64,000 bases of DNA from Eledone cirrhosa. Its lineage: Eukaryota. The stretch spans positions 39,432,001 to 39,496,000 of the forward strand of contig OZ024755.1 in assembly GCA_964016885.1 (NCBI GenBank). The letters run 5' to 3'. The translations under genes and the position numbers were made by a program. The notes beneath the pieces were generated by a model that saw only the letters and a program-made list of their open reading frames with translations, ran no database searches and was not told the DNA's origin. Shown piece after piece: positions 972-47,084 of this stretch. Each line of letters begins with the position of its first letter. Within the stretch, counting starts at the first letter, position 1.

Positions 972-2010
972 CTGCGTTGCTTCAGTTCCTCTATGATAAT
1001 ATTTAGCCTTTTCCTCCTAGTTTTGTACTTTATTTCCAGTCTATTTTTAGTGTCTATGTTTTTTAGCGTCCCATTCAGTAGGGACTCAAGCTTTCCAATG
1101 TCATTTCTCATTTCCCTGATTTGACCAGTCAGTCGTTTCCCACTATCATTGTTCATTGTGGATTGGCAGTATCGGTAGAGGGTCGGACGCCATGCTTTCC
1201 AGCATAGTTACGTCCCTTTACGATCTGAGTTCAAATCCCGCCGAGGTTGACTTTGCCTTTCATCATTACGGGGTCGATAAAATAAAGTACCAGTAATGCA
1301 CTGGATAATTGCTGGCCTTGTGCCTAAAGTAGAAAGAATTGTTCATTTCATCTACCACTAAGTTTAGGATAGCAACCAAATCATGTCCTAGCCCGTCAGC
1401 ATTCATCCCCTCAATGGCCGAATCTTTGTTCCAGGTATTATTTATTTCAGCATTCAGATCATTGTCTGCTTCGGATGGTTCCTCCGTTCTCTCAACCTCT
1501 TCACCTTCATTTCCAACTGGCTCATTTGTCTGGCATACTCCACTCTCCATTTCCAACCTAATCTCTCTGCTCAGTTCCTCCAGTTCCAGCTCGCTTATCC
1601 ACCCATTAGTTCTTATTACACGAGACTGCCCGGCCAATTTTTGTTCTTCTAATTAAAATAGACCAATCTCGTTCCAGATGTTATGCATCCGTTTCCTACA
1701 GCCTTTTTCCTTGGGGTTACTCTTCAGGTAACATTGCATAACAGTTCTATTCAATTCTTTCGTCCAATTCATTCTGGTCCCTTTCCTTCTTCTTCCTCCG
1801 ACACAAGCAGTATTTGGTTGACAGCCAGGTCCCTGCTGCTGGGCCAGGGAGCACATGCTGAGTGAGAGTCTGTCACATGACATTCCAGTCTCCACTTCAC
1901 CGTTATTCGAACTGTTTAGGTTCGACATTGAAACACTCTTATCGAGGATTGGTGAATGTATCGTTACATAACCACCGCTGATTTCATCACCTCCGCTAAT
2001 AACATTAGTA
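972..2010 (-). mobile_element. 5' fragment of R4/Dong-type RLE retrotransposon family A, internally deleted and interrupted by a SINE
   Basis: ORFs 938..1156 and 1266..1637 are close paralogues of the N-terminus of ORF 6798..8654 (AGQ.RVIRTNGWISELELEEL, KNRLEIKYKTR). ORF 1653..2063 adds the N-terminal WTKELN..VM.CY..S.P...G.RKRM..IW motif. Bounded by (ATT)n at about 2010. Confidence 0.75.
1157..1338 (+). mobile_element. tRNA-derived SINE (dominant family of this window) with target-site duplication
   Basis: A-box-like TGGCAGTATCGG and B-box GAGTTCAAATCCC, body GACTTTGCCTTTCATC..GGGGTCGATAAAATAAAGTACCAGT. ATTGTTCATT is duplicated on both sides (1148 and 1338). Confidence 0.8.
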
Positions 2011-2032
2011 TTATTATTATTATTATTATTAT

Positions 2033-4186
2033 TACAGTTGCATTTATCTTGCTTTATGTTCATACGAGTTACACCAAGTCACAACCAGTGACCTCAAGAG
2101 ACAACAAGGTCCGCCATGTTCAAGAAAGAACATACATACTCACACATGCATCTTTAGTGTTTAGACTTGTGATGTAATTATATTGACAGAATCTTCCTTA
2201 GTACTAATGGGAACTGCCCATATGCTATCTTTTGTATTTCTCCTATACGCGGGTTTCCTGGGATTTGCGATAAGTAATCATTAGACCCCTTAGGTATCAT
2301 TCCTAGAGCGCCTACAACCACTGGTATTGTTTTAGTTCTCAATTTCCACATTTTTCCAATTTCTATCTCCAGGTCCTTTTACTTGCTCAATTTTTCAAAT
2401 GTTTTTATAGATACATTCTTGTCTATTGGAACGGACATATCAATTAGCAGGCATACCCTCTTTTGAAAGTCCTTCAATATTATATCAGGTCTATTTGCAT
2501 CTATTTTTCGGTCTGTTTGGATGCTAAAGTTCCACAAGATTGAGATGTGATCTTTTTCAAGTATGGGAGGTGGTTGATGCTCCCACCAATTCTTTTGATG
2601 GGGCAGGTCAAAATGCTTACACATTATCCAATGTATGTATTGTGCAGCTCTGTCATGCCTGTTTAGGTATTCGGTTGGAACTATAGGACTGCACATTGAA
2701 ATTATATGGTCAATGGTCTCTGGTTGTTTTTTACATACACGACATAATGGGTTGCATCCATTTTTTATTATGTTGGCTTGGTAATTTTTTGTTGGCAGAC
2801 ACTGATCTTGTGCTGATATAATCAGTCCTTCAGTCTCCGATTTCAGTCCAGAGGTTGCCAACCACTGATGGGTTAAAGTTTTGTCAACATCAGGATTGTT
2901 AGCTCGTTCTGGGTATTTTCCATACAGAGGCTTTTCTTGCCATTTCTTAGCCAGTTTCTGTAGCAGTTCTTTCTTTGCAGTTACTTATACCTGCTTTGCT
3001 TTTTCTGTGTTTTCCATTTCAGCAGTAAATGGGACTTCTGAAATGTGTAGTCCATTACTGTATCTTTGTGCATCTTTTGTAATGGAGTATGATCTTTTGA
3101 TGCTTTCGTGTTTCAAAACGAGTTTGATCATCCAATCATGTGATACCCTTAGATATGTAGATAATCCAATTGTTGCAGTTTTCAACGCAATGTCTAACTG
3201 GATTAACCCACGTCCTCTTTCTTTCCTAGGGAGATATATTTTATCTGTATCTGCCTTAGGGTGATGCATTCTGTGCATGGTTAAGAATTTTCGAATTTTT
3301 GTATCGAGCCTACGGATCTCTGTGCTTGACCAGTTGATGACATTGTAACTGTAGGTTACTACTGGTATGGCAAGCGTGTTTATGGCATCGATCCTATTCC
3401 TTGCATTCAATTCCGTTCTTAAGATTGCTCTTACACTGCGGTAACATCCCTTCCTTATCCTTTCCCTCATTGTCGAGTGCTTGATTCCGTCTCCTTCACA
3501 AACACCTAGATATTTGTAAGTTTCCTCTTGATCAAGTTCTCTTATCACATTCCCTCGATCAAGATTAATGTGTGAACTCTTCAGCAGCTTTCCTCTGGTG
3601 AACGTTGCTTTGGCGCATTTATCTAGTCCAAACTCCATTTTAATGTCATCACTGAACTGCTCCACAGTGGATAATAGCCCTTGCAATTGTTCATCAATTT
3701 TTTGCAAATAGTTTCAGCTCATCCATGTAGAACAAGTGATTAATGGTTTTGTCATAGACTTTATATCCATGTTTTGTTTCATTGAGCATTTTACTTAATG
3801 GTATAAGTGCGATGCAGAATAAAAGCGGTGATAAAGAGTCACCCTGAAAAATTCCACAATTAATATTAACTTCTCCAGCTTCCAGTGATTTTTTTTCACT
3901 ATTCAAAAGGAGTGTCGTTTTCTATGTCTTCATACTGAATGACAAAAACCTCCTGACAACGGGAGATATTTTGTAAATCTCTAAACATTTTTCAATCCAA
4001 CTGTGTGGCAAATTATCGAATGCTTTTTTATAATCTATCCAAGCAATTGATAGATTTTTGTGTCTATTATGACAATCTTCCAGTATCATTTTGTTAACCA
4101 AAAGCTGATCCTTACAGCCATATGAGCCTCGTTTACACCCTTTCTGCTCAATGGGAAATAGGTCATTTGTTATCAGGTGGTCATAT

Positions 4187-4188
<2 letters not shown>
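2033..4188 (-). pseudogene. R4/Dong-type RLE retrotransposon family B, 5'-truncated, frameshifted copy 1
   Basis: ORF pieces: [65 protein letters not shown] (CCHC), RHD, RPDI..D (restriction-like endonuclease). (TAA)n on both sides. Confidence 0.88.
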
Positions 4189-4249
<61 letters not shown>

Positions 4250-4250
<1 letters not shown>

Positions 4251-5417
4251 AGTTCCATTTATCTTGCTTTATGTTCATACGAGTTATCACCAAGTCACAA
4301 CCAGTGACCTCAAGAGACAACAAGGTCCGCCATGTTCAAGAAAGAACATACATATTCACACATGCATCTTTAGTGTTTAGACTTGTGATGTACTTATATT
4401 GACAGAATCTTCCTTAGTATATGGGCAGTTCCCATTAGTACTATCTTTTGTATTTCTCCTATACGCGGGTTTCCTGGGATTTGCGATATGTAATCACTAG
4501 ACCCCTTAGGTATCATTCCCAGAGCGCCTACAACCACTGGTATTGTTTTAGTTCTCAATTTCCACATTTTTCCAATTTCTATCTCCAGGTCCTTATACTT
4601 GCTCAATTTTTCAAATGTTTTTATAGATACATTCTTGTCTATTGGAACAGACATATCAATTAGCAGGCATACCCTCTTTTGAAAGTCTTTCAATATTATA
4701 TCAGGTCTATTTGCATCTATTTTTCGGTCTGTTTGAATGCTAAAGTTCCACAAGATTGAGATGTGATCTTTTTCAAGTATGGGAGGTGGTTGATGCTCCC
4801 ACCAATTCTTTTGATGGGGCAGGTCAAAATGCTTACACATTATCCAATGTATGTATTGTGCAGCTCTGTCATGCCTGTTTAGGTATTCGGTTGGAGCTAT
4901 AGGACTGCACATTGAAATTATATGGTCAATGGTCTCTGGTTGTTTTTTGCATACACGGCATAATGGGCTGCACCCATTTTTTATTATGTTGGCTTGGTAA
5001 TTTTTTGTTGGCAGACACTGATCTTGTGCCGATATAATCAGTCCTTCAGTCTCCGATTTCAGTCCAGAGGATGCCAACCACTGATGGGTTAAAGTTTTGT
5101 CAACATCAGGATTGTTAGCTCGCTCTGGGTATTTTCCATACAGAGGCTTTTCTGGCCATTTCTTAGCCAGTTTCTGTAGCAGTTCTTTCTTTGCAGTTAC
5201 TTTTACCTGCTTTGCTTTTTCTATGTTTTCCATTTCAGCAGTAAATGGGACTTCTGAAATTTGTAGTCCATTACTGTATCTTTCTGCATCTTTTGTAATG
5301 GAATATGATCTTTTGATGCTTTCGTGTTTCAAAACGAATTTGATCATCCAATCATGTGATTCCCTTAGATATGTAGATAATCCAATTGTTGCAGTTTTCA
5401 ACGCAATGTCTAACTGT
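4250..5417 (-). mobile_element. R4/Dong-type family B, 5'-truncated copy 2 (CCHC plus RLE, 3' UTR)
   Basis: ORF 4394..5401 is near-identical to copy 1 and ends KYKDL...IPVVVGALG...LRKILSI. Same 3' UTR running into (TAA)n at 4188-4249. Confidence 0.88.
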
Positions 5418-5447
5418 TATTATTATTATTATTATTATTGTTGTTAT

Positions 5448-8400
5448 TCCTTGAATCTCAGTCATTGATGTTGGTTAACTGGAAAGTCCGTTGGAATGAA
5501 TATCAAGCCACTACCTGCAGCCTCAGATATTCAGGACGTATCGGAGGGTTCTTGCTGTTCCAAGCAAGCATGCCTTTTGAAGCGTTCCAAAAAGCGTGAA
5601 GGGGCCGATTTTCTTTAACCATACCTGGAAACTTTTGGAGATAGTCCCCAGTGCGCCTATGACAATCGGGATCACTTTGACTTCATGGCAGTTCCAAATC
5701 CTTTTCACCTCCCACTTTAGGTCCTGGTATTGGTTAATTTTCTCCCTCTCCTTCTCTTGCACTCTCGTGTCGAACGGGCAGGCCACATCCACAATCAGGC
5801 ACGATCTTTTTTCTTTGTCCATAACCACCAGGTCAGGTCTATTGTGTTCCAGTTTTTTGTCCGTCTGTATCCTAAAATCCCACAGCACCTTCACCTGACT
5901 GTTCTCCATCACCGCCTCTGGCCTATGCTCATACCATTTCTCAGAATGTGGTAGATTGTTTACTTTGCACAGGTGCCAGTGGATCACCCTGCCCATCACA
6001 TCGTGTCTCCAGCCCTTATAGTGGGTCTGGGCTAGGTGTTTACACTCGGACACAATGTGAGCCACAGTCTCCTCTCTCTCTCCACAGATCCTGCACAGTG
6101 GGCTAGCCTCCTCCTTGTAAATATGGTGCTTCAACCACTTCGTTTTGAGGGCCTGCTCCTGCGCAGCCATTAGCATTCCTTCTGTAGCATTTTTGAGGTC
6201 TCCTCTTCTCAACCAGTTCCATGTCTGTGGATCTCTAAATTCAGTTTTCTCAAAGAAGGTACTATGAAGGGATTTTCCCTTAAGGCTGCTCTTCCTCCTT
6301 GATGTTATTTCCTCCTTGGACATCCCCTGGCCTACTGTCCCCTCCTTCAGTACAGTTCTGAAAATTGGCTCCTTACTATAGGTCACGTATTTGTATAGGT
6401 TGTTTTTCTCCATCTGAACACAGTCCTCTATGCTGATAAGACCTCTTCCACCCTCAGATCTCCTTAGGTAGAGTCTATCGACATCACTCCTCTTGTGGAA
6501 CATGTTGTAGATAGTCAATAGCTTCCTAGTCTTCCTATCCATTTCTTTTTGTTCAGCAACATTCCATCTCAGAATTCCCGCACTGTACCTAATAATAGAC
6601 ACAGCTCGGGAATTTACTGCGTTCATGGCATTTCTGCTGTTCAGATGTGACTTCAATACGCTCCTTACTCTCCGAATGTATTCAGTTCTTAACAATTCCT
6701 TCATTTTTTTGTTCTTTATGCCATCAGCCTCCAGAACGCCCAAATACTTGTATCCTTCCTCAGAGTCAATTTCCTTTATCATCTCACCTGTTGGTATCTA
6801 GATCCCGTTACTTCTGCTCAACCTACCCCTCCTCATCACAATGACTCCACATTTACTAATACCAAACTGCATACATATATCACTGCTGAAAATACGGACA
6901 GTGTCAACAAGCACATCCAACTCCTTCTCACTTTTCCCGAAGAGCTTAAGATCGTCCATGAAGAGGAGGTGATTGATGGTAAGCTCTCCCTTTCCCAACT
7001 TGTATCCTGCTCTCACTTTTCGCAGCATAATGGTCAAGGGCATCAGGGCAAGGACAAACAACAGAGGGGACAGGCTATCTCCCTGGAAGATACCTCTCTT
7101 GATCTTCACGCTTCCCAAGGATACTCCAGTTGATGTCAACTCTGTCTCCCAGGACCCCATACTCCTGCCCAGCAACTGTCTGATGTTATCTGCCACCCTG
7201 AAGACCTCCAGGCTTTTGGTGATCCAGGAATGAGGCACCATGTCAAATGCCTTTCTGTAGTCTATCCATCCCATGGCAAGATCAGTGTGTCTCCTCCTGC
7301 AATTCCCCATTACCATCTTATCAATAAGCAACTGGTCCTTTGTACCACGTGACTTCTTTCGGCATCCTTTCTGTTCGTCCGGTAACAAGTTGTTTGTGTG
7401 GAGGTGATGGTAGATTTCCTCAGACACAATGCTCGTCAACAGTTTCCACATTACGGGCAGACATGTGATAGGTCTATAGTTGGTAACATCATTACCCTTG
7501 ATTCGGTCTTTCATTATCAGAACTGTGGTACCTTTTGTCAACCACTCTGGCACCTCACCCGACACCAAGCAGTCATTGAACATGGCCGTCAGCTTCGGGT
7601 GGAGGGATGTTAAATGTTTAATCCAATACCCCTGCACACCATCTGGGCCTGGTGATTTCCAGTTGGTTAGTTTTTTGGCTTGCCCCTTAAGAGTTTCAAC
7701 TGTGATACTCAAATCAGTCTGTTGTTGTGCCTTCTCACCGATCTCCCTCTGTACTGTCTCAATCCACCCTGCCTGGGCATTGTGTCTAACATCCTGCTCC
7801 CATATTCCTCTCCAGAATGTTTTAGCTTGTTCCGCCCCAGGGATCAAGTCGTTGCCTCTTTCTTTCCCCTCAAGCTGTCCAAACAACATCTTCTGGTTGT
7901 TGTCGAACATGCGGTTCTGTTTATACTGACTGACCCTGTTCTCGTATCGCCTGATTTTGGCACTCTTTGCTACAATGCGTTGCTTCAATTCCTCTATGAT
8001 AATATTTAGCTTTTTACTCCTAGTTTTGTATTTTATTTCCAGTCTATTTTTAGTGCCTATGTTTTTTAGTGTCCCATTCAGTAGTGACTCAAGCTTTCCT
8101 ATGTCATTTCTCATTTCCCCGATTTGCCCACTCAGTCGCTTCTTCCACCACGGCTCTGCTCTTTCTTGTCTGTTGTTTCCTCTCGCTTTTATACCAAGTA
8201 GTTTCCTCACCGTATTTGCTGTTGCTTTGAGGATATTGTTGCACTGGTGAAGACTCCTCGCCTCAAGGTATGGGATGACTTTGTTTACCTTAGCTGTTGT
8301 TTCTTTTAACTTTTTCCTGTCTACAAATCTTAGGTTCATAGGTCTCCCACTATCATTGTTCAATTCATCTACCACTAGATTTAGGATGTCAACCGAATCT

Positions 8401-8672
8401 TGTCCTAGCCCGTCAGCATTCATCTCCTCAGTGGCCGTATCTCTGTTCCAGGTATTATTTATCTCAGTATTCAGATCATTGTCTGCTTCGGGTGGTTCCT
8501 CCGTTCTCAGGACCTCCTCACCTTCATTTCCCACCGGCTCGCTTGTCTGGCATACTACACCCGCCATCTCCAAGCCATTCTCTCTGCTCAGTTCCTCCAG
8601 TTCCAGCTCGCTTATCCACCCATTAGTTCTTATTACCCGAGCCTGCCCGGCCAATTTTTGTTCATCTAATTT
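5448..8672 (-). mobile_element. R4/Dong-type RLE retrotransposon family A, near-complete ORF with one in-frame stop
   Basis: ORFs 6798..8654 and 5523..6782 are in the same frame. Motifs: KSPGPDG, NYRPITCL, IDYRKAFD, QGDSLSP, LFMDD, YKYLG, CRICGEREETVAHIVSEC, RHD, RPDLVV. (TAA)n at both ends. Confidence 0.9.
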
Positions 8673-8678
8673 AAATAA

Positions 8679-8711
<33 letters not shown>

Positions 8712-8993
8712 TATATACCTATTTATTTATTTTTCAGTTCCAATCTGTGGTTCAGTGTTGGAGGTTTCACTGATAATTCACTCAGTTATAGAGAAGAATA
8801 TGGATATTACCTTACAGACTCACCAGCCTTACACGACTCTCTTCCCTACTGGTATAACACACATTTAATCATCTTTTATACCTACATACATACATATATG
8901 CACACATACATACATACATAATACACACATACTTACATACATACACGATGAAGTTTCGTTTACATGTATTTATTGTTTTAATGTGTTTCGATC

Positions 8994-11192: not shown

Positions 11193-11513
<321 letters not shown>

Positions 11514-11514
11514 T

Positions 11515-14224
11515 GTGTTCAGTGCAAAAACCAATCTATCGGTGAGGGAAATAATGCCTATCTCCCCGCGAGTGTTGAGGGTGACCTTCAATGGAAACCC
11601 AAGACTGACAGTCATCTCAGCCTATAGTCCAACCGAGGGGGACAGTGATGTGAATGCGGAGGAGTTCCATGAGGAGGTGTGTAGAGCTGTCAACACCACT
11701 CAGGCACACAATATCCTGCTTGTTTTGGGGGACTTCAATGCACATCTGAGTAAGGAGGGCAGTGAAGATCCTTGCTGGTACTTCCATAACAATACCAACC
11801 GAAATGGAAGACTACTGAGAGACACCCTGCTGGAGGCGAAGTTGATGGCGACCAACCTAAGGTTTAGGAAGAATCTGGGGAAGATGTGGACCTACATCTC
11901 AGATATGCACCTGTCCAAGTCCCAGATTGATTTCATTCTGGTGAGGAAAAAGTGGCGGAATAGTGTTCAGAACACGGAACCATACAGCTATTTCAGTACA
12001 CTGGGTAGTGACCACCGGCTCGTTATGAGTGAGGTCCGCGTGAGCTTAAGAATGAGCAAGGCTCAGCCCCGGAGAGCAATCTATGACTGGGGAGCTTTCA
12101 AGGAAGATGATAAGCTACAAGAGAGGTTCACAGTGGAAGTGAGAAACAGGTTTAGTGCTCTGTGTGGAGAGTCAGAGGAGAGAGAGATTGGATGGACTGA
12201 GGAGAGTATGACGAGGAGGTACGGGCACTTCACCAATGCAGTGGCGAAAGCAAGTGAAACCCTGGTGCCGAGGAAAAAGAACAAAGGGAAGCACGTCAGC
12301 TCTGCAAACCCAAAAGTGTGTGCAGCCAGAGAACACCTGAAAGCTGCCAGGGACCAATTCTATGCTGATCCTACGGAGGAGAGGATGGAGACTGTGGAGG
12401 TGATGAGGGAAGAGCTCTGTACCGCTTACACTGAGGTCAGAGAGGAGGCACTGATAGAGAAGATCAGAAGTGTGGAGAGAGCGGTTGACAGATCTGGATA
12501 TAAGGAGAGCTGGATGATCATCAACGAGATCACAGGGAGGAAGAAAAGGTGTTCGAGTCAGATCCAGGGAACGGGGCCCGAGGATAGGAAGAGGAAATGG
12601 CTAGACCATTTTAGGACCCTACTAGGAGAGCCACCCTCCACAGCCCAGAGCACTGGGGAGATCAGGCGGCTGTTTGAGGAACTGGATGTTGAGACAGAGC
12701 CCTTCACCAGAGAGGAGCTTCAGAGAGCCAAGAAGAAGATCAAGGAGGGCAAGGCTCATGGAGAAGATGGAGTGGCATCAGAGGTGATGAAGAGGTGTGA
12801 TTTTGATGATATCATCCTGGGGTTCTGTAACGGGGCACTGGAGAAAGGAGTTGCCCCGAATCAGTGGAGGATCAGTAACATCGTCCCAGTGCCAAAGAAG
12901 GGAGATCTCTCTAACACCAACAACTACTGGGGGATCTCACTGACGTCACTTGTGGCAAAGACGCTCAACAGGATGATTCTTAACAGGATCCAGCCTGAGA
13001 TGGAGAAGAAGCTCAGGGACAACCAGAACGGCTTCAGAGAGGGTAGATCAACCACCAGTCACATCCTGATGCTGAGGAGGATATTAGAGGGAGCTAGAGC
13101 AAAGTGCCTTCCTGCGGTCATGGTTTTCATTGACTTTAGGAAAGCCTTTGATTCTGTGGACCGTTACTGCCTGATGAAGATCTTACAGGCTTATGGAATC
13201 CCCAAGAGGATAGTGGACCTGATATCACTGCTCTACACCAACACCAAAGCCCAAGTCATTACACCTGATGGGATGACAGAGTTCTTTGAGATACTGGCTG
13301 GAGTGCTCCAGGGAGATACATTGGCTCCCTACCTTTTTATCATCGTAGTGGACTATTGTATGCGCCTGGCACTGGAGAAACACCAAGACTCTGGCTTTAC
13401 TGTAGCACCGGCTCAGAGCAGGAGAGTTGGGGCGAAAAAGGTATCGGATGCTGAATTTGCCGACGACATAGTTTTGGTGACAAATACAGTGAAGGAGGCA
13501 GAGGATTTGATGCGTGAGGTTGAGACTGTGTCGATGAGTGTGGGGCTGAGAATGAATGAGACTAAAACAAAATATCTGGTAGAGAATGTTGAGAAGCCAG
13601 AGGGGATTACTAATGTAGGCGGGAAGCCGCTGGAATTGGTTGAGGACTTCCTGTATTTGGAAGCAAAGATTGGGAATGCGGAGGATGATGTGGTTGAGAG
13701 GAAGAGCAAGGCCTGGGCGGCGTGCCACAGCTTGAGATCGGTGTGGAAGTTGGACCTTCGTAGAGACCTGAAAATCCGCCTCTTCATTGCTGTAGTGGAG
13801 TCTTTGCTGCTGTATGGGTCTGAGACTTGGACACTGACCAAGAAACCCACTCAGATGGTGGATGGGTGCTACACGAGAATGCTGAGGATGGCTCTGAACA
13901 TTAATCAGTATACACTGAGGATGAAAAACTCAGAGCTGTATGGGAGCATTCTAAAAGTCAGCTCAAAAGTGAGACAGAGGAGACTAAGGTTGGCTGGACA
14001 TGCTCACCGACATCCGGAGTTGACATTGCACTCAGTGCTCCTTTGGGAGCCCCTACATGGACACACTAGAAGAGGAAGACCAAGGTTAACATATGTTGAT
14101 GCCCTAAGGACAGACACTGGTCTGTTGGAGATGCAGGATATGGCAGCGATAATGAGGGACAGAGACCGCTGGAGAGAACTCGTCCATGGATCTCGGGAAT
14201 TTTACCCGCCTTAGATAGATAGAT
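11515..14224 (+). mobile_element. RTE/RTE-X-like LINE, 5'-truncated, open 899-aa APE-RT ORF, (TAGA)n tail
   Basis: APE motifs (SAYSPT, LGDFNA, SQIDFIL, SDHRLV) and RT motifs (QNGFREGRST, FIDFRKAFDSV, GVLQGDTLAPYLF, EFADD, LLYGSETW, RRLRLAGH, RGRP). Stop codon merges into TAGATAGATAGA. Confidence 0.9.
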
Positions 14225-14265
14225 ATATATCTATATATATGTATATATGATACTATATATATATA

Positions 14266-14407
14266 TGTGAGAAAAACCACAGACCCTCCATCTCAACTCA
14301 CCTTTTGAAAAGCAGAAGAACTGCGAAACCGGTAAAGGAACCAAATAACTATAGATATTTTTTTTTTAAATAAGACTTCAGTTGCATTTTCGATTTCATC
14401 CCTTTTT

Positions 14408-14411
<4 letters not shown>
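14266..14411 (+). mobile_element. Single arm of the 28313-28670 hammerhead-remnant family
   Basis: GTGAGAAAAACCACAGACCCTCCATCTCAACTC...GCGAAACCGGTAAAGGAACC...TTTCTT then (TA)n. Matches 28453-28606 and 40528-40685. Confidence 0.75.
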
Positions 14412-14444
<33 letters not shown>

Positions 14445-14637
14445 GATAAATCTACCAAGAGTTTACGGTAGTGTCCAATCCGTATGAAGAACTCAATGTA
14501 TTCCGGATATCATGGAAAGAAGAGATGTAATGAAAAATCACATTCGGTGAAAGATAAACGGTATACAGAGTCAAGATAAAATATTAAACAAATAATGAAT
14601 AAACAATGAAACAGTTCCTTATATTAAACAAAAAAAG

Positions 14638-14791
14638 TTCATTATTTAACGATCGTTTCTAGGGTATATATGTGTTAGAATTGGCATGCATATTCAACAG
14701 ATCTATGTACAAAATTATACAAAATTATACAAACTATCAAGATTAAATATACATACCAACACATATATACGCCGTCTTCAGAAATAATGAA
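14638..14791 (-). ncRNA. Type I hammerhead ribozyme with long stem II (left arm of giant palindrome)
   Basis: Reverse complement of 21231-21384. Confidence 0.75.
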
Positions 14792-15442
14792 ATATATTTA
14801 TTGATAATAACAACAATTCAAAATTTCAGGTCCCTTTGGGAACAAAATTGACCAATGAAAATACAAAAGGTTTAATGCAGTTCAGTGTGTGTATATACAT
14901 GTAACTACCCTTACACATATTTTACAAAAATGTATGCACAACTTGTATACGCATATCAAAAGGATGGATGCAAGTACACAATTTCAAGGTTAATGTCTCT
15001 GTAAGTTTATAAAGCACAGATAAGATGCGTATAGACACATAAATATGAAATAAGTGTATACACATATTCACATACTCAGACATATCCGTACAATCACACA
15101 CACACTCGCGTATATGCATAAACATACACATAACTAACGAACATACAAACACACACACACCCCCACTCACATATATATATGTGGATATAAAATCCTAAGC
15201 ACATGGATATTAATTCACTCACATAAACACTGGCAAACACATTTAGATCAAGATACAGAAATTAGGTGGGAGGGGGGGGGGGGAGGTCAGTATTCAACGG
15301 TTTGGGCAGACTGCTTAATATAGATGTATCTATAAACTAAGAAAATAAAAAATAATAAAATATAATAAAATAATAAATAATAAATAAACAATAAAAGGAA
15401 AGAAAAGAAAAAGAAAAAAGAAAAAAGAAATATATCAAGAAA

Positions 15443-15500
<58 letters not shown>

Positions 15501-15653
15501 ATACACATATATACACACATACATATATATATATACACATATACAAACACATACATACATATACACACATCCACACTTAGAACATACATACACACACATA
15601 TATAAACATATACATATACACACATACATACATATACACACATACATATAAAT

Positions 15654-15748
<95 letters not shown>

Positions 15749-16029
15749 CATACACATATAATCACACATACTATATAGACACACATATATATACACACAT
15801 ACACGCACATATACATACACTTACATACTTATATACATACAGATATACACATACATACCTATATATACACACACAAATACATACAGACATACATACATAC
15901 ATACAGACAAATACTTACGCATCTATATATCGGTATATACATACAAACACCACTACACTCTCACACAACTCAGACATACAAAGAAAAAGGTATATACCTA
16001 TACACAACTACATATACAAATAGAGAAAC

Positions 16030-16098
<69 letters not shown>

Positions 16099-16288
16099 GA
16101 CATACACACACATACACATACATACACATACATACATGTACACACACATAGATATATATACACATACACACATACACACATACATATATAGTCATACACA
16201 CACATACACATACACGAACATACACATACACATATATAAAGATATATACACACACACACACACACACATACACACACATATATATAAA

Positions 16289-16345
<57 letters not shown>

Positions 16346-16678
16346 TACATATATATACATACACACATACATAGACATATATGTACATACATACACATAC
16401 ACAGATACATACACACACATACATACATATATATATACACACATAGACATATACATACAAACACACACAACATACCTACACACATATATATTCATACATA
16501 GAATTAGATATATATTCATACATACACCTGCACTTACATATACTCATATATATAAATACATACGCATTCATATATGCGTATATACATAGAAACACCACTA
16601 CACCCTCACCCAACTCAGATATACAAAGAAAAAGGCATATACATATATATATATACACGCATTAATAGAGATATATAT

Positions 16679-16710
<32 letters not shown>

Positions 16711-16932
16711 ACACATACACTTATATATATATACCCACATACACATACAACCATAAATACACATACAAACACCCACATATACATATATATACACATATAT
16801 ATATATACACACACACATAAAAAACAGACATGCACATATATATTTTTTTACACACATATATACACATATATATACATATACACACCCTCACATATACACA
16901 CATACACATAAGTTATATAATAATAATAAATA

Positions 16933-16984
<52 letters not shown>

Positions 16985-17236
16985 GAATATAGACACATAT
17001 ACACACATAGATATATATATACACATATATATACACATACATATACACACACACATATACACACTCACATATATATGTGTGTGCAAACACATATATATAC
17101 ACATACACACATATACACATAAACACATATATGTGTATACATGCACACACACACATATATCCACATAGATACGAAGATAGACATATAAATAGAGACATAC
17201 ATATATATACACACACATACATATACATACATACAT

Positions 17237-17292
<56 letters not shown>

Positions 17293-18734
17293 GCATACAC
17301 ATACACATATATATACACATGCATATATACACATATACACATACATACACACATATATATACACACACAATCTTACATTCTTATTTGCATGCGCATATAT
17401 GTATTTTTATATTCAGATATAAATACCCAAACATATATACACCTACCTACATATATATTCATACATACACACTTACAAACACAGATGATAATAGTATGGG
17501 GGAAAGGGGGGGGGGGTGGAGAAGGGGATTATAGTAAATATATGTTTCAAGAAACATAGAATATTATCCGTATCTGGATCCAATGTATGTTTTTACATAG
17601 TTTCAGTGTTAGGAAATACAATAAACAAGAAATAAGGCAAAATTTATGCATTTCAAAATAAATAAGTATACCATTAATTATATGTTAACTAAACTAAAGA
17701 TAGTTAACATATTGATTTCTAAGGTGTAAATTAGTTAGGTTTATAATATTTGAAGCAGAATTTTGAAGTTAAAAAGTAGTAGAGTATTGATTATAGTATA
17801 ACTAAATTAAAGTTAATAACGTTATGGTATCAATATTAGGAAATGAATTTAGTAATAGGGAAAAAACAAATAAAGTATTACATCGGTAGTAGAATATAAA
17901 TTATAGGTTAACTAAATTAAAAATTATATATTTATTTCTATAGTATATGTTAATTAGGTATATAATAAATAAAACAGATATTGTATTTTATCAATAGCGG
18001 AATATAATTATATGCAAATAGAAATCAAAATTAATACTAATTAATGCAAATAGAAATCAAAATTAATACTAATTAACATATACTATAGAAATAAATATAT
18101 AATTTTTAATTTAGTTAACCTATAATTTATATTCTACTACCGATGTAATACTTTATTTGTTTTTTCCCTATTACTAAATTCATTTCCTAATATTGATACC
18201 ATAACGTTATTAACTTTAATTTAGTTATACTATAATCAATACTCTACTACTTTTTAACTTCAAAATTCTGCTTCAAATATTATAAACCTAACTAATTTAC
18301 ACCTTAGAAATCAATATGTTAACTATCTTTAGTTTAGTTAACATATAATTAATGGTATACTTATTTATTTTGAAATGCATAAATTTTGCCTTATTTCTTG
18401 TTTATTGTATTTCCTAACACTGAAACTATGTAAAAACATACATTGGATCCAGATACGGATAATATTCTATGTTTCTTGAAACATATATTTACTATAATCC
18501 CCTTCTCCAACCCCCCCGCCCTTTCCCCCATACTATTATCATCTGTGTTTGTAAGTGTGTATGTATGAATATATATGTAGGTAGGTGTATATATGTTTGG
18601 GTATTTATATCTGAATATAAAAATACATATATGCGCATGCAAATAAGAATGTAAGATTGTGTGTGTATATATATGTGTGTATGTATGTGTATATGTGTAT
18701 ATATGCATGTGTATATATATGTGTATGTGTATGC

Positions 18735-18808
<74 letters not shown>

Positions 18809-19063
18809 ATGTATGTATGTATATGTATGTGTGTGTATATATATGTATGTCTCTCTATTTATATGTCTATCTTCGTATCTATGTGGATATATGTGTGTGT
18901 GTGCATGTATACACATATATGTGTTTATGTGTATATGTGTGTATGTGTATATATATGTGTTTGCACACACATATATATGTGAGTGTGTATATGTGTGTGT
19001 GTATATGTATGTGTATATATATGTGTATATATATATCTATGTGTGTATATGTGTCTATATTCG

Positions 19064-19112
<49 letters not shown>

Positions 19113-19689
19113 TATTTATTATTATAATATAACTTATGTGTATGTGTGTATATGTGAGGGTGTGTATATGTATATATATGTGTATATATGTGTGTAAAAA
19201 AATATATATGTGCATGTCTGTTTTTTATGTGTGTGTGTATATATATATATGTGTATATATATGTATATGTGGGTGTTTGTATGTGTATTTATGGTTGTAT
19301 GTGTATGTGGGTATATATATATAAGTGTATGTGTGTGTATATATATATATATATGTGTATATATATCTCTATTAATGCGTGTATATATATATGTATATGC
19401 CTTTTTCTTTGTATATCTGAGTTGGGTGAGGGTGTAGTGGTGTTTCTATGTATATACGCATATATGAATGCGTATGTATTTATATATATGAGTATATGTA
19501 AGTGCGAGTGTATGTATGAATATATATCTAATTCTATGTATGAATATATATGTGTGTAGGTATGTTGTGTGTGTTTGTATGTATATGTCTATGTGTGTAT
19601 ATATATATGTATGTATGTGTGTGTATGTATCTGTGTATGTGTATGTATGTACATATATGTCTATGTATGTGTGTATGTATATATATGTA

Positions 19690-19766
<77 letters not shown>

Positions 19767-19962
19767 TTTATATATATGTGTGTGTGTGTATGTGTGTGTG
19801 TGTGTGTGTGTATATATATCTTTATATATGTGTATGTGTATGTTCGTGTATGTGTATGTGTGTGTATGACTATATATGTATGTGTGTATGTGTGTATGTG
19901 TATATATATCTATGTGTGTGTACATGTATGTATGTGTATGTATGTGTATGTGTGTGTATGTC

Positions 19963-20041
<79 letters not shown>

Positions 20042-20322
20042 GTTTCTCTATTTGTATATGTAGTTGTATATAGGTATATACCTTTTTCTTTGTATGTCTG
20101 AGTTGTGTGAGAGTGTAGTGGTGTTTGTATGTATATACCGATATATAGATGCGTAAGTATTTGTCTGTATGTATGTATGTATGTCTGTATGTATTTGTGT
20201 GTGTATATATAGGTATGTATGTGTATATCTGTATGTATATAAGTATGTAAGTGTATGTATATGTGCGTGTATGTGTGTATATATATGTGTGTCTATATAG
20301 TATGTGTGATTATATGTGTATG

Positions 20323-20371
<49 letters not shown>

Positions 20372-20524
20372 ATTTATATGTATGTGTGTATATGTATGTA
20401 TGTGTGTATATGTATATGTTAATATATGTGTGTGTATGTATGTTCTAAGTGTGGATGTGTGTATATGTATGTATGTGTTTGTATATGTGTATATATATAT
20501 ATGTATGTGTGTATATATGTGTAT

Positions 20525-20582
<58 letters not shown>

Positions 20583-21230
20583 TTTCTTGATATATTTCTT
20601 TTTTCTTTTTTCTTTTTCTTTTCTTTCCTTTTATTGTTTATTTATTATTTATTATTTTATTATATTTTATTATTTTTTATTTTCTTAGTTTATAGATACA
20701 TCTATATTAAGCAGTCTGCCCAAACCGTTGAATACTGACCTCTCCCCCCCTCCCACCTAATTTCTGTATCTTGATCTAAATGTGTTTGCGAGTGTTTATG
20801 TGAGTGAATTAATATCCATGTGCTTAGGATTTTATATCCACATATATATATGTGAGTGGGGGTGTGTGTGTGTTTGTATGTTCGTTAGTTATGTGTATGT
20901 TTATGCATATACGCGAGTGTGTGTGTGATTGTACGGATATGTCTGAGTATGTGAATATGTGTATACACTTATTTCATATTTATGTGTCTATACGCATCTT
21001 ATCTGTGCTTTATAAACTTACAGAGACATTAACCTTGAAATTTTGTACTTGCATCCATCCTTTTGATATGCGTATACAAGTTGTGCATACATTTTTGTAA
21101 AATATGTGTAAGGGTAGTTACATGTATATACACACACTGAACTGCATTAAACCTTTTGTATTTTCATTGGTCAATTTTGTTCCCAAAGGGACCTGAAATT
21201 TTGAATTGTTGTTATTATCAATAAATATAT

Positions 21231-21384
21231 TTCATTATTTCTGAAGACGGCGTATATATGTGTTGGTATGTATATTTAATCTTGATAGTTTGTATAATTT
21301 TGTATAATTTTGTACATAGATCTGTTGAATATGCATGCCAATTCTAACACATATATACCCTAGAAACGATCGTTAAATAATGAA
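21231..21384 (+). ncRNA. Type I hammerhead ribozyme with long stem II
   Basis: TTCATTATTT-CTGAAGA-[GTATATATGTGTT...AACACATATATAC]-GAAA-CGATCG-TT/AAATAATGAA. 10-bp stem I and palindromic stem III. Confidence 0.78.
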
Positions 21385-21437
21385 CTTTTTTTGTTTAATA
21401 TAAGGAACTGTTTCATTGTTTATTCATTATTTGTTTA

Positions 21438-21469
<32 letters not shown>

Positions 21470-26635: not shown

Positions 26636-27200
26636 CAACAAAACACCAACAGACCAGCATCTCATCCTAAATCAAGCCACAGATCGAACTATAACGAAGA
26701 GCCAGCACATAGGAAGGCCTCCAAATGTAACTGCCATCTGCCAGATAAATGCCCACTACAAAATAGATGCCTGGAGTCCAGTATGTTATACCTGTGCACT
26801 ATTAAGTCTGGTGACCAGGCGTGGTATTATATAGGTTCCACAGTCAGTGACGTCAAACAACGATGGTATGTGCATCGGCACTCCATAAAGAACCGGAGAC
26901 TCAGTAACGCAACGATGCTGGCCAATGAAATCTGGCAGCTTGTGGATAGTAATCAAGGATATGAAATAAGGTGGTCGATATTATCGAATACCAGAACCTA
27001 CTTTATGGGATGCCCCAATGCGGATTATGCAATATGGAATTACTCTATATTCTGCAATATAAGACTCTACTAAATAGCAAAATCGAAAGATCAATTTTCT
27101 GTAGGCACAAAACTGCCGGCAAATACTGGAATTACAAACCAAGATAAACAGGATTCGATCCAGCAACCTCATTATCTATATAAACAAAACAATTCCCTGG
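26630..27200 (+). pseudogene. Penelope-like GIY-YIG endonuclease remnant with CxCx5CPx4C linker
   Basis: KCNCHLPDKCPLQNRCL, LYLCTI...YYIGST...KQRWYVH..SI....NATMLANEIWQL...IRWSIL. Frameshift in the C-terminal Cys region. Confidence 0.78.
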
Positions 27201-36693: not shown

Positions 36694-37890
36694 TTCAATC
36701 CGGAGCTTTGTAGTTATGTAAGAGGTGTTTCCAGACGTGTGGACAACGTGTGAAGAATTCATTTCTTGTGTTTAGGCAATCGCTATTGCGAAATCTCTTT
36801 AGAATATTTATTCGTTCATCAATACATAGTCCACACGACGGATTGCCCCTTGCGTATGGCTTGGACTTAGTGATGGCTTTCCATTGAATGGAGTAGTCTA
36901 TACTTGAGTCATTGAGGGACCATACGTGGCTCGCGAATTTCGTGGATGAACATCTGTCCGAGTACCTAAAGGTCGACTGGTGGTTCAGGAAACGTTCCTT
37001 AAATCGGCCCTTCGCCATACCCACATATGATTTGACCTCCTCTGGTTGATTTGGTCGGTTGGAAGTGACCACAGCTTCATAAACTACAACGGGTGTGTTT
37101 CATTGCTGTTGAAGGAGACAAGCTTCGGGCTTACGGCAAGAGCACCCTGGTGGTGTGTTGCTCTTAGGGCTGTTGGTGATGTGGACCTTCATGTTCTTAA
37201 TGTAGGAGTATCCTAGTTTTACTTTATGTCGGTTAAAGATGGAGCGGTATTTATGACCTATAGGAAAGTCTCTATCTAAGAGGGCTAGAAATGTTTTACC
37301 TACATTGGTTTTAACGTTGAGTGAGAAGGGAGGAGTGAACCAGATAGTTTCTCTATTATTACGTTTGTTTTCTTATTGCTGTTGTTGTTAATGGGAGAGT
37401 AAGTGATAGGTTGCGCGAAGCCGCTTTTAGCTAACGCCGTGTTATAGGAGGGTGCCGCTCTATCAAAGATAGCCTTATTAGAGGAGAGGTTTGAGATTCT
37501 AGTAGTGATATACTTTACGAATTTCTAAAAACAGTGGGAGGGTGGCATCAGTCCTTGTGAATGTAATTGAGTTTTTCGTTAAGCTTACGGAAGGGTCTGT
37601 AGGTATGTGTACGAAGGTCTAAATTAATGTCTAAGAAATCTACGCTAGAGAGGTTGGTAGCTGCTGTTATCCTAAGTCCTAACTCATTGAAGTAGAAGCT
37701 AAGTCCCTTTTAAACCGGTCGAGGTCGTGACCACTTTTATGGCCCGATAAGGTCAGTCCATCGTCGCGTTATATTCCCGTGTGGAAGTCCGGGAATCTAA
37801 CACGTAATATGTCTAAGATAAATAGGCCAACCAAGTCGCATACGTCAGCACTGTCAAACGATCCCATGGAGACGTGGAACGGGTCTGAAG
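36694..37890 (-). pseudogene. Penelope-like element remnant with RT and C-terminal GIY-YIG endonuclease
   Basis: Minus strand: SMGSFDSADVCDLVGLFIL, RDDGL, VDFLDINLDL, PFRKLN, WFTPPFS.NVKTNVG..FL.L, then CSC....C.L and ORF 36695..37072 (YVGMAKGRFKERFLNH...IQWK...CGLC..E...LNTRNEFFTRCPH). Several stops and frameshifts. Confidence 0.85.
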
Positions 37891-38151
37891 TTGTTTGTGT
37901 CTGGCTAGTTCGTCCTCAGATTTGATGTGATTTTTGTTGTGTTAACACTGGTCTGAGGATCAGGCAGTCTTGGAGTCTGGTCTGGCGTACCAACCCAGAT
38001 CACGAGCCAGTTGTTTGAGAAATATTGGTAACCAGGATGTTACATTTCCTATGTAACATCTCCACTTTGTCCTTATTATATCAACTCTGCTCTGTAGCGA
38101 ATGCTGACTTTGATACTCTCACAAGTTTTTTTCAGACTTACTAAACATTCT

Positions 38152-40813: not shown

Positions 40814-41084
40814 GGTATATACTTACATACAAACATACACACATATATATATAATGCGTGTGTGTGTGTGTTTGTTTGTGTATGTATGTATATATAAAAC
40901 ATAAAAACGCTGAGCGATCGATATATTTACATATGTTTTCAACAATTCATTTGTCAGATATGATTGTATTTCAATAACATTTCCATTAAACTCTGTTGTA
41001 AAAGTAACAACTGTAAGACAGACATATGCCAAATATGTGTAATAATTCCAGAGATATTCTTTGACGGTTCTTCAAGTATCTTCA

Positions 41085-42725
41085 CAGACAGCGACACCCT
41101 CTCTGCCTCTAGTACTGATATTTCCCTCACCTACCCACATACAGCGACACCCTCTCTGCCTCTAGTACTGATATTTCCCTCACCTACCCACAGACAACGA
41201 CACCCTCTCTGCCTCTAGTATTGATGTTTCCCTCACCTACCCACATACAGCGACACCACCACAGCCTCTAGTATTGTCATCTCGCTCACCTACCCACAGA
41301 CAGCGACACCACCTCTGCCTCTAGTACTGATATTTCCCTCACCTACCCACAGACAGCGACACCACCACAGCCTCTAGTATTGTCATCTCGCTCACCTACC
41401 CACAGACAGCGACACCACCTCTGCCTCTAGTACTGATATTTCCCTCACCTACCCACAGACAGCGACACCACCACAGCCTCTAGTATTGTCATATCGCTCA
41501 CCTACCCACAGACAGCGACACCACCTCAGCCTCCGTATTGTCATCTCGCTCACCTACCCACAGACAACGACACCACCTCAGCCTCCGTATTGTCATCTCG
41601 CTCACCTACCCACATACAGCGACACCACCTCAGCCTCTAGTATTGTCATCTCGCTCACCTACCCACATACAGCGACACCACCTCAGCCTCCGTATTATCA
41701 TCTCGCTCACCTACCCACAGACAGCGACAACACCTCAGCCTCTAGTATTGTCATCTCGCTCACCTACCCACAGACAGCGACACCACCTCAGCCTCTAGTA
41801 TTGTCATCTCGCTCACCTACCCACATACAGCGACACCACCTCAGCCTCCGTATTGTCATCTCGCTCACCTACCCACAGACAGCGACACCACCTCAGCCTC
41901 TAGTATTGTCATCTCGCTCACCTACCCACATACAGCCAAACCACCTCAGCCTCTAGTATTGTCATCTCGCTCACCTACCCACATACAGCGACACCACCTC
42001 AGCCTCTAGTATTGTCATCTCGCTCACCTACCCACATACAGCGACACCACCTCAGCCTCCGTATTGTCATCTCGCTCACCTACCCACAGACAACGACACC
42101 ACCTCAGCCTCCGTATTGTCATCTCGCTCACCTACCCACATACACCGACACCACCTCAGCCTCTAGTATTGTCATCTCGCTCACCTACCCACATACAGCG
42201 ACACCACCTCAGCCTCTAGTATTGTCATCTCGCTCACCTACCCACAGACAACGACACCACCTCAGCCTCCGTATTGTCATCTCGCTCACCTACCCACAGA
42301 CAGCGACAACACCTCAGCCTCTAGTATTGTCATCTCGCTCACCTACCCACAGACAGCGACAACACCTCAGCCTCTAGTATTGTCATCTCGCTCACCTACC
42401 CACAGACAGCGACACCACCTCAGCCTCCGTATTGTCATCTCGCTCACCTACCCACAGACAGCGACAACACCTCAGCCTCTAGTATTGTCATCTCGCTCAC
42501 CTACCCACATACAGCGACACCACCTCAGCCTCTAGTATTGTCATCTCGCTCACCTACCCACATACAGCGACACCACCTCTGCCTCTAGTATTGTCATCTC
42601 GCTCACCTACCCACATACAGCGACACCACCTCACCCTCTAGTATTGTCATCTCGCTCAACTACCCACATACAGCGGCACCGCCTCAGTTCCAGCCTCCGT
42701 ATTGTCATCTCGCTCACATACCCAG
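41085..42725 (+). repeat. 52-53-bp minisatellite, about 30 copies
   Basis: AGCGACACCACCTCAGCCTC(TA/C)GTATTGTCATCTCGCTCACCTACCCACA(T/G)AC in contiguous units with no spacers. Confidence 0.95.
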
Positions 42726-46331: not shown

Positions 46332-46839
46332 CATATATATACATATATACATATATATATATATATACATATATATACATACATATATATATATATATAT
46401 ACATATGTAGTGAAATCTTAGATATTTGTATTGGCATTACCATTTTATAACAGCAACTGCTTGTATACCTTTTACCTGACCTATTTTCACCCCTAAAATA
46501 AGCTTCAATTACTACTATTTTACCATTTGGCCAATTATTAACTTTCTATTGGTTAATTCTAAACCTCTTACCAAACAGACAGAATATATTAGATCTTTGT
46601 TGGTTTTATTCAATGAACAAATAAAATTATTTCTGAGTTCAGCATATGACCTATTTCTTCCCTAAAATAATCCTTCATTCATAATATTCTTTTCCATCCA
46701 AAACTGAAATCTACCTTTCTCTACCCATAATTTAAGGGTCTTCTACTACTATATTACTATCTTGACCCTCACTATCTCCTGATTGGTCAATTCAAAACCT
46801 GTTCCCAAACAGACCTATTGTATTGAATCTTTGTCTTTA

Positions 46840-46981
46840 TCATTATTTCTGAAGACAGCATATATATGTGTAGGTATGTATATTCCCTCTGATAGTTTGT
46901 ATAAATATTGTACATAGATCTATAGAATATGCATACCAACTCTAACACATATATATCCTAGAAACGATCGTAAAATGATGA
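46840..46981 (+). ncRNA. Type I hammerhead, diverged relative of the giant-palindrome ribozyme (element about 46780-47035)
   Basis: TCATTATTT-CTGAAGA-..ATATATGTGT...ACACATATAT..-GAAA-CGATCG-TA/AAATGATGA. Downstream AATATAAGGAACTGTTTC..TGTTTATTCATT matches 21397-21430. Confidence 0.75.
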
Positions 46982-47084
46982 ATTTTTTTAATATAAGGAA
47001 CTGTTTCTTTGTTTATTCATTATTTTATTAATTTATATATATACATATATATACATGCATACATATATATACATATATATATAC

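Follow-up and report, generated by a model that had tools for sequence, protein, structure and literature searches.

A 6.9-kb palindrome in Eledone cirrhosa as a probable double-ended insertion of a Penelope-like element

Penelope-like elements of the Hydra clade encode a reverse transcriptase (RT) along with a C-terminal GIY-YIG endonuclease (EN) within one open reading frame (ORF), target (TA)n, carry a type I hammerhead ribozyme near the 3' end and occur as partial tandems, as inverted 5'-truncated copies and with a tail at one end (PMC8557442; statements from this source refer to excerpts of it). Here, a stretch of 64,000 nucleotides (nt) of Eledone cirrhosa DNA, referred to as the window (GenBank assembly GCA_964016885.1, contig OZ024755.1, positions 39,432,001 to 39,496,000), was analyzed, in which a 6.9-kb palindrome extends from 14576 to 21446. 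With a probability of about 0.8, it represents a single insertion of a Penelope-like element that is young, autonomous and equipped with Hydra-clade motifs; two 5'-truncated copies of the 4.1-kb 3' untranslated region (UTR) of this element stand back to back in (TA)n, likely as a result of nicking and priming on both target strands.

Relation to described elements and ribozymes

The family of the palindrome shares with the Hydra clade its motifs and, among the features listed above, the ORF layout, the targets, the position of a putative hammerhead and the copy forms. Its unit measures 6.67 kb compared with 1.4-3.0 kb in 20 published Hydra families, and thereby exceeds the length of "generally" under 3 kb given for Hydra, which is not a strict criterion (PMC8557442). 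Helix II of the hammerhead comprises 115 nt, as opposed to stems of 4-7 bp with loops of 4-9 nt in five Hydra rows, and the tail 135 nt instead of 30-40 bp (PMC8557442). A 4.1-kb 3' UTR with 47% simple repeat and a disordered insertion of about 100 residues between RT and EN further set the family apart (PMC8557442). An assignment to Naiad or Chlamys was rejected, as the endonuclease is C-terminal and not N-terminal.

The Poseidon element PAc of Anolis is similar in that its tail lies between two RT start sites, both target strands are cut and extended, targets are AT-rich and the RNA template is uncut. It belongs to another clade, its hammerhead overlaps the ORF start, and its start was not strand-specific in vitro, whereas 34 of 35 end pairs are mixed here (PMC11167929). 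Like published type I hammerheads, the motif has a palindromic helix III, which would suit dimer formation, and one additional nucleotide following A9, and it occurs in pairs on opposite strands. However, helix II of the published motifs has 4-8 bp and a conserved G10.1-C11.1 pair instead of 115 nt closing with C.A, and their opposite-strand pairs lie 100-700 bp apart, compared with 6.5 kb in the window. In penaeid shrimp, young Penelope copies likewise move internal microsatellites, although the excerpted passages describe neither clade, UTR anatomy nor inverted doubling (PMC7878876). Animal non-LTR retrozymes also combine a type I hammerhead with Penelope-related ends, according to passages of a preprint, but are short non-coding tandem units, while the present element measures 6.7 kb and encodes its own enzyme (bioRxiv 10.64898/2026.07.22.740005). 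A retrozyme identity was rejected on account of the 6.7-kb unit with its intact ORF.

As a product of Penelope insertion, the palindrome is to be expected, and it is one of many of 6-29 kb in this genome. What is unusual lies in the family: its unit length, helix II, tail length and the copy statistics, through which the mechanism of insertion becomes testable. The way in which inverted arms and tails of Penelope elements arise is an open question (PMC11167929; excerpts of PMC8557442). In the literature covered, with subscription papers mostly outside its scope, no account was found of twin priming in Penelope, of retroelement hammerheads with a long helix II or of stem I as the place where an RNA begins.

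The palindrome and its parent element

Self-BLAST of the window returned a single long inverted match, 14576-21446, so that the palindrome named in the original prediction stands. Its two arms differ by 11 substitutions over approximately 3,370 columns and by 12 indels in a global alignment, and all 12 indels fall in simple-repeat or homopolymer runs. The left arm (14441-18037, minus strand) corresponds to positions 6672 down to 3171 of the element unit, the right arm (18069-21446, plus strand) to positions 3251-6537, and both end within the 3' UTR and contain no ORF, as was seen in the k-mer map onto the full unit and by tblastn. Only the left arm ends with a tail (14441-14575, minus strand), which is the stretch between two fixed element ends; the tail had been noticed on this side, but it starts at 14441 and not at 14443 and thus has 135 nt. 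The right arm begins 80 nt inside the extent of the left arm. What had been taken for a separate spacer is the extra length of the left arm plus a 31-nt insert (18038-18068), and across the switch from left to right arm lies the predicted 32-bp tandem duplication (18012-18043/18044-18075), which is exact. A junction duplication is also present at locus L048 and another at the 5' end of locus L042.

Both flanks of the insertion are (TA)n. The left tract (14411-14440) follows on from an unrelated hammerhead stub (14264-14410), and the right one is a (TA)n-rich stretch from 21447, viewed as far as 22000. Alternating purine-pyrimidine simple repeat makes up 52% of the arm; the arms are thus low-complexity DNA for about half of their length and not mostly, as had been stated. 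The TA/CA block of the UTR, which is carried by the family, occupies 15430-17381 on the minus strand and is mirrored at about 18646-20595. A degenerate copy of the last ORF codons, seen in the sequence, as a fuzzy match in the unit and by self-alignment, is located within the AT-rich UTR core at 18272-18295 (plus strand).

The palindrome was confirmed by short-read contigs and by the differences between its arms. Runs X1 (depth 7.7) and X2 (depth 4.4), which represent one sample and maybe the source sample, contain a 62-nt short-read contig that crosses the junction and shows 0 differences; runs X4 and X20 had no coverage of the junction and are uninformative either way. Five unique segments of the arms were compared with the majority of 21-24 other copies. 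Between the two arms, 2 of 690 bases differed, as opposed to 9-16 between the arms and other copies, and within-locus arm distances at other loci were 0-3. At 20 of the 25 sites where an arm departs from the majority, the variant is common to both arms, and these shared private variants are spread over the whole arm. Both arms derive from one source lineage.

For the end of the arm, the 3.0-Gb genome yielded 1,192 candidates, and all 40 that were scored are 99-100% identical. The AT-rich core gave 1,793 candidates and the ORF start 1,076; the whole arm recurs at dispersed loci. Tandem copies give a period of 6,672-6,724 nt. The 6,672-nt unit consists of a 153-nt leader, a 2,442-nt ORF (813 aa) and a 4,077-nt 3' UTR, and the family displays the features of endonuclease-bearing (EN+) Penelope elements, namely partial tandems, inverted 5'-truncated copies and a one-sided tail. 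The arms are not the giant non-coding element that had been suggested: throughout, they consist of constant 3' UTR sequence from a 6.7-kb autonomous element, the ORF of which encodes RT and endonuclease. At C1:183.733-183.763 Mb, a 29.4-kb single insertion comprises four near-identical tandem units, which differ by 0-1 per 689 bases, and an inverted arm, with several intact ORFs.

The predicted structure of the 813-aa protein (P0001) has a pLDDT (predicted local distance difference test) of 75.5, and its top 9 PDB matches are telomerase RTs. A sequence search of PDB with the ORF yielded one retron RT (E 0.008), and the best named homologue, from Argonauta hians, is 42% identical over 56% of the query. 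The motifs listed for the Hydra clade are DKT, RW[KR], CxCx5C, CxxC and CxH (PMC8557442). In a protein alignment (A1), DKT is present in 12 of 12 members and RW is followed by K or R, the protein of the palindrome family having RWR. Its CxCx5C linker reads CNCRNKANC, CxxC reads CRLC and CxH reads CNH, whereas CCHH is absent by inspection. A disordered insertion of about 100 residues separates RT and EN. The C-terminal motif VY..YIG..R is conserved in A1, and together with one weak homologue match it points, at the level of motifs, to a GIY-YIG endonuclease.

End pairing and the route of insertion

Exact ends abutting TA repeats were counted genome-wide, which gave 4,237 tailed and 2,036 tail-less ends (6,273 in total) and 0 in reversed controls. 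Pairing was then analyzed in the first 99.6 Mb of contig C1, which holds 100 of the tailed and 45 of the tail-less ends, with outward-facing ends at most 30 kb apart regarded as a pair. Among 35 such pairs, 34 joined a tailed to a tail-less end, one joined two tailed ends and none two tail-less ends, an excess over independent choice with P about 1e-9. One tailed plus one tail-less end is the rule of this family. Pair spans are bimodal: 16 are below 1 kb and 16 are at least 5 kb, 12 being at least 6.5 kb; all pairs below 1 kb were fetched, and the long ones are known from their end positions. Extrapolated from the 16 pairs of at least 5 kb, palindromes of this size probably number several hundred in the genome.

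In addition, 16 double-ended loci with spans of 6.0-29.4 kb, including that of the window, were mapped; they were chosen from top matches and show occurrence, not frequency. All are flanked by TA repeats, one of them with a short impure right flank, and their arms are joined by 0-5 nt of microhomology or a short insert. At 6 of the 16 the tail-less arm extends further 5' than the tailed arm, and neither contains the other. Each unit has exactly two copies of an 11-nt hairpin motif that was picked after the fact, located 23 nt past one fixed end and 16 nt past the other; 0.003 occurrences are expected per unit. This hairpin, TTTC-ACS-GAAA, lies at unit positions 6561 and 17, and its copy in the window tail (14542-14552, minus strand) has one altered base.

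As sister insertions nearly always have a different fixed end on either side, it is likely that both ends of a single DNA break receive a copy of the element RNA. The element enzyme would nick both target strands and prime reverse transcription from each, one primer starting at the tail end (unit 6672) and the other 135 nt upstream (unit 6537), on uncut RNA of one source locus. In another clade, a purified Penelope protein was shown to nick both strands and to extend them, the tail lay between two RT start sites, and uncut RNA was the main template (PMC11167929); for Penelope-like elements, inverted copies with 5' truncation and tails on one end have been published (excerpts of PMC8557442). 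Both cDNAs would then stop early and join via short microhomology, with a 32-nt slip at the window locus. If the RNA starts within stem I of the hammerhead, priming on its first copy of the end would run into the RNA start and give islands of about 550 bp, while priming on the downstream copy would give multi-kb arms as in the window. The microsatellite block travels as UTR cargo. The proposal in its full extent is an obligate two-primer integration with different fixed start sites for the two strands and with the RNA start located within its own hammerhead, which would account for 550-bp islands and 5-30-kb palindromes, together with an active hammerhead with a 115-nt helix II and a 2-kb microsatellite cargo doubled per inverted insertion. 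In this form it is tentative, with the odds somewhat against it. From the thousands of young copies, two sharp rules emerge that can be tested, namely the pairing of a tailed with a tail-less end and stops within stem I of the hammerhead.

Several observations weigh against a two-primer insertion of a Hydra-type element. The clade call is drawn from motifs; Pfam assigned no family to the ORF and detected GIY-YIG in only 1 of 12 members (E 0.012). In vitro, the start sites do not differ between strands, which leaves the strict pairing unexplained (PMC11167929). The tail pattern picks up more subfamilies than the tail-less pattern, so the ratio of their counts is not clean, and in the C1 sample 64 of 100 tailed and 11 of 45 tail-less ends had no exact-match partner. 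A young locus on C13 is tailed at both ends. Among the 16 mapped loci, the tail-less arm is contained in the tailed arm at 9, and at 1 the arms are near-equal; the window locus, with its offset of 80 nt, is itself of the contained type.

The contained loci would suit a process with one primer only, in which the first cDNA turns back on itself, at the window locus 80 nt short of its end, and serves as the template of the second arm; the shared private variants are compatible with such copying. Copying into an inverted duplicate, which had been proposed from the start, is thus possible for the window locus taken by itself. It fails at the 6 loci where the tail-less arm reaches further 5' yet lacks the tail, as neither arm can have templated the other. 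Because of these non-nested arms fold-back is not the general route, and it gives no reason for a halt at exactly unit 6537 in 2,036 places; overall, we consider it unlikely.

Still less probable are two independent back-to-back insertions that were afterwards homogenized by gene conversion. Inverted arms can undergo gene conversion, and copies do nest in each other's (TA)n tracts, as at the C13 locus. However, no (TA)n lies between the joined arms, the 20 shared variants run along the whole arm, and gene conversion would not yield the rule of one tailed and one tail-less end.

An equally poor account is given by a giant non-coding element or by host flanking DNA captured at this insertion through read-through. 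The arms lack an ORF, and the middle of the UTR (unit U 3812-6104) has no alignment to the sister subfamily B, so that an ancient capture of DNA into the family UTR may have occurred. For the window insertion this explanation is refuted: the whole arm belongs to the element, which has thousands of ends in the genome, and recurs at 97-99% identity at dispersed loci joined to the ORF. Moreover, an older copy of the same lineage already has a 4,202-nt UTR, and the UTR grew partly by duplication of the ORF end and of internal UTR segments. Long inverted repeats are what chimera formation typically yields in low-complexity DNA, and the supporting reads are short ones from the possible source sample, but an assembly or read fold-back artefact is scarcely credible given a junction that is free of differences in X1 and X2, 11 base differences between the arms and arm ends that are unlike each other and typical of the family.

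Hammerhead, stub islands and repeat cargo

An identical type I hammerhead fold was found in both arms, with canonical core CUGAAGA, GAAA and UH. In the right copy (21231-21384, plus strand), stem I pairs 21231-21240 with 21375-21384 (10 bp), followed by the core at 21241-21247, helix II at 21248-21362, GAAA at 21363 and a palindromic helix III at 21367-21372; cleavage is predicted after 21374. The left copy (14638-14791, minus strand) has its core at 14781, GAAA at 14659 and the predicted cut after 14648. The claim of the same intact hammerhead about 60 nt from each edge therefore holds for the core, the 10-bp stem I and its distance of 62 nt from the arm edge, but helix II comprises 115 nt and closes with a C.A mismatch. 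A U.U closure of helix II is present in the published Hydra-1_aJap (excerpts of PMC8557442).

The 358-nt end region folds at z = -6.7 relative to 100 shuffles. Covariation across 7 rows (about 3 lineages) was not above shuffles, with 102/500 for paired cells and 258/500 for the score. No Rfam hammerhead was among the 150 best window matches listed or in 21150-21450, only chance microRNA-type hairpins, and a hammerhead scan with helix II limited to 44 nt missed the motif; hammerheads with a very long helix II thus escape Rfam and short-stem descriptors. By eye, no second hammerhead was found on the opposite strand of the tail. A long helix II is not unique to the family, since the helix II domains of other loose hammerhead matches, located in the fetched loci, measure 49-91 nt, and four of these close with a mismatch. 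Unrelated hammerheads that close with an N.A mismatch before GAAA, with a helix II of 50-91 nt, are located at L104:250(-), L110:5963(+), window 52646(-) and L037:6324(-).

The original prediction had described the palindrome as a small-island architecture scaled up, which proved apt, as the same family makes both islands of about 550 bp and multi-kb palindromes. The 16 pairs below 1 kb comprise 32 stub arms. Of these, 21 stop within unit 6321-6327, in the 5' strand of hammerhead stem I, and 13 of the 21 end at 6325. One stub arm runs past this zone, and 0 of 32 stop at the predicted cut site 6465/6466. These positions suggest that the element RNA begins inside stem I, near unit 6321-6327, which would correspond to 21230-21236 (plus strand) and mostly to 21234 in the right arm. 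An RNA 5' end is a simpler reading of the stops than pausing, because a pause would be expected at the 3' foot of the helix. Unit 6325 is the A of TCA-TT, which we take to resemble an initiator element.

Alternating repeat accounts for 47% (1,907 nt) of the 3' UTR. Without gaps, the repeat-rich stretch of the window is 97.5-98.7% identical to that of four other loci, so the block is carried and not grown anew at each site; the element UTR carries microsatellite DNA, as had been anticipated. Microsatellite carriage by Penelope elements is also described in shrimp (passages of PMC7878876). With each copy, about 1.9 kb of simple repeat can be transported in a retroelement UTR, which by a rough estimate amounts to approximately 0.1-0.2% of the genome. 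Since the arms point away from each other, kilobase double-stranded RNA would require host read-through across both of them. The proteins of sister subfamily B are about 88% identical to those of the palindrome family, and its UTR has 1,438 nt with 19% repeat. A stub of this subfamily (1,168 candidates; 105-nt helix II, 1.4-kb UTR) lies in the window at 46700-47040 (plus strand). At C13:23.03-23.06 Mb and C2:185.667-185.682 Mb, insertions are nested within family UTRs, the cases being a young insertion inside the repeat-rich UTR of an older copy and a different GIY-YIG element inside the UTR of a young copy; because of such nesting, the UTR cargo can act as a landing site.

The palindromic insertion is part of a stack. 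An RTE-like LINE ORF (11494-14214, plus strand), a 906-aa open stretch with Pfam matches to RVT_1 and Exo_endo_phos_2, ends in a short (TAGA)n tail, and on the 3' end of this element sit the hammerhead stub at 14264-14410 and then the palindrome. At least 10 other type I hammerheads of unrelated stub families, several with a U3-A8 core variant and with helix II domains of 10-83 nt, are present in the window, at positions 14305, 22557, 23159, 24049/24311, 27766/27884, 28105, 28501, 32060, 36523, 40645, 52646 and 62437. More distant remnants of Penelope-like ORFs, 30-43% identical to the family protein, were detected at 36707-37894 (minus strand) and 26678-27141 (plus strand). A LINE-like element occupies 2000-8726 on the minus strand, with an RT match at 6801-8726 and a 1.2-kb direct duplication (2004-3200/4219-5416, 97%), and 41083-42724 holds a tandem array in which the repeat period is about 53 bp.

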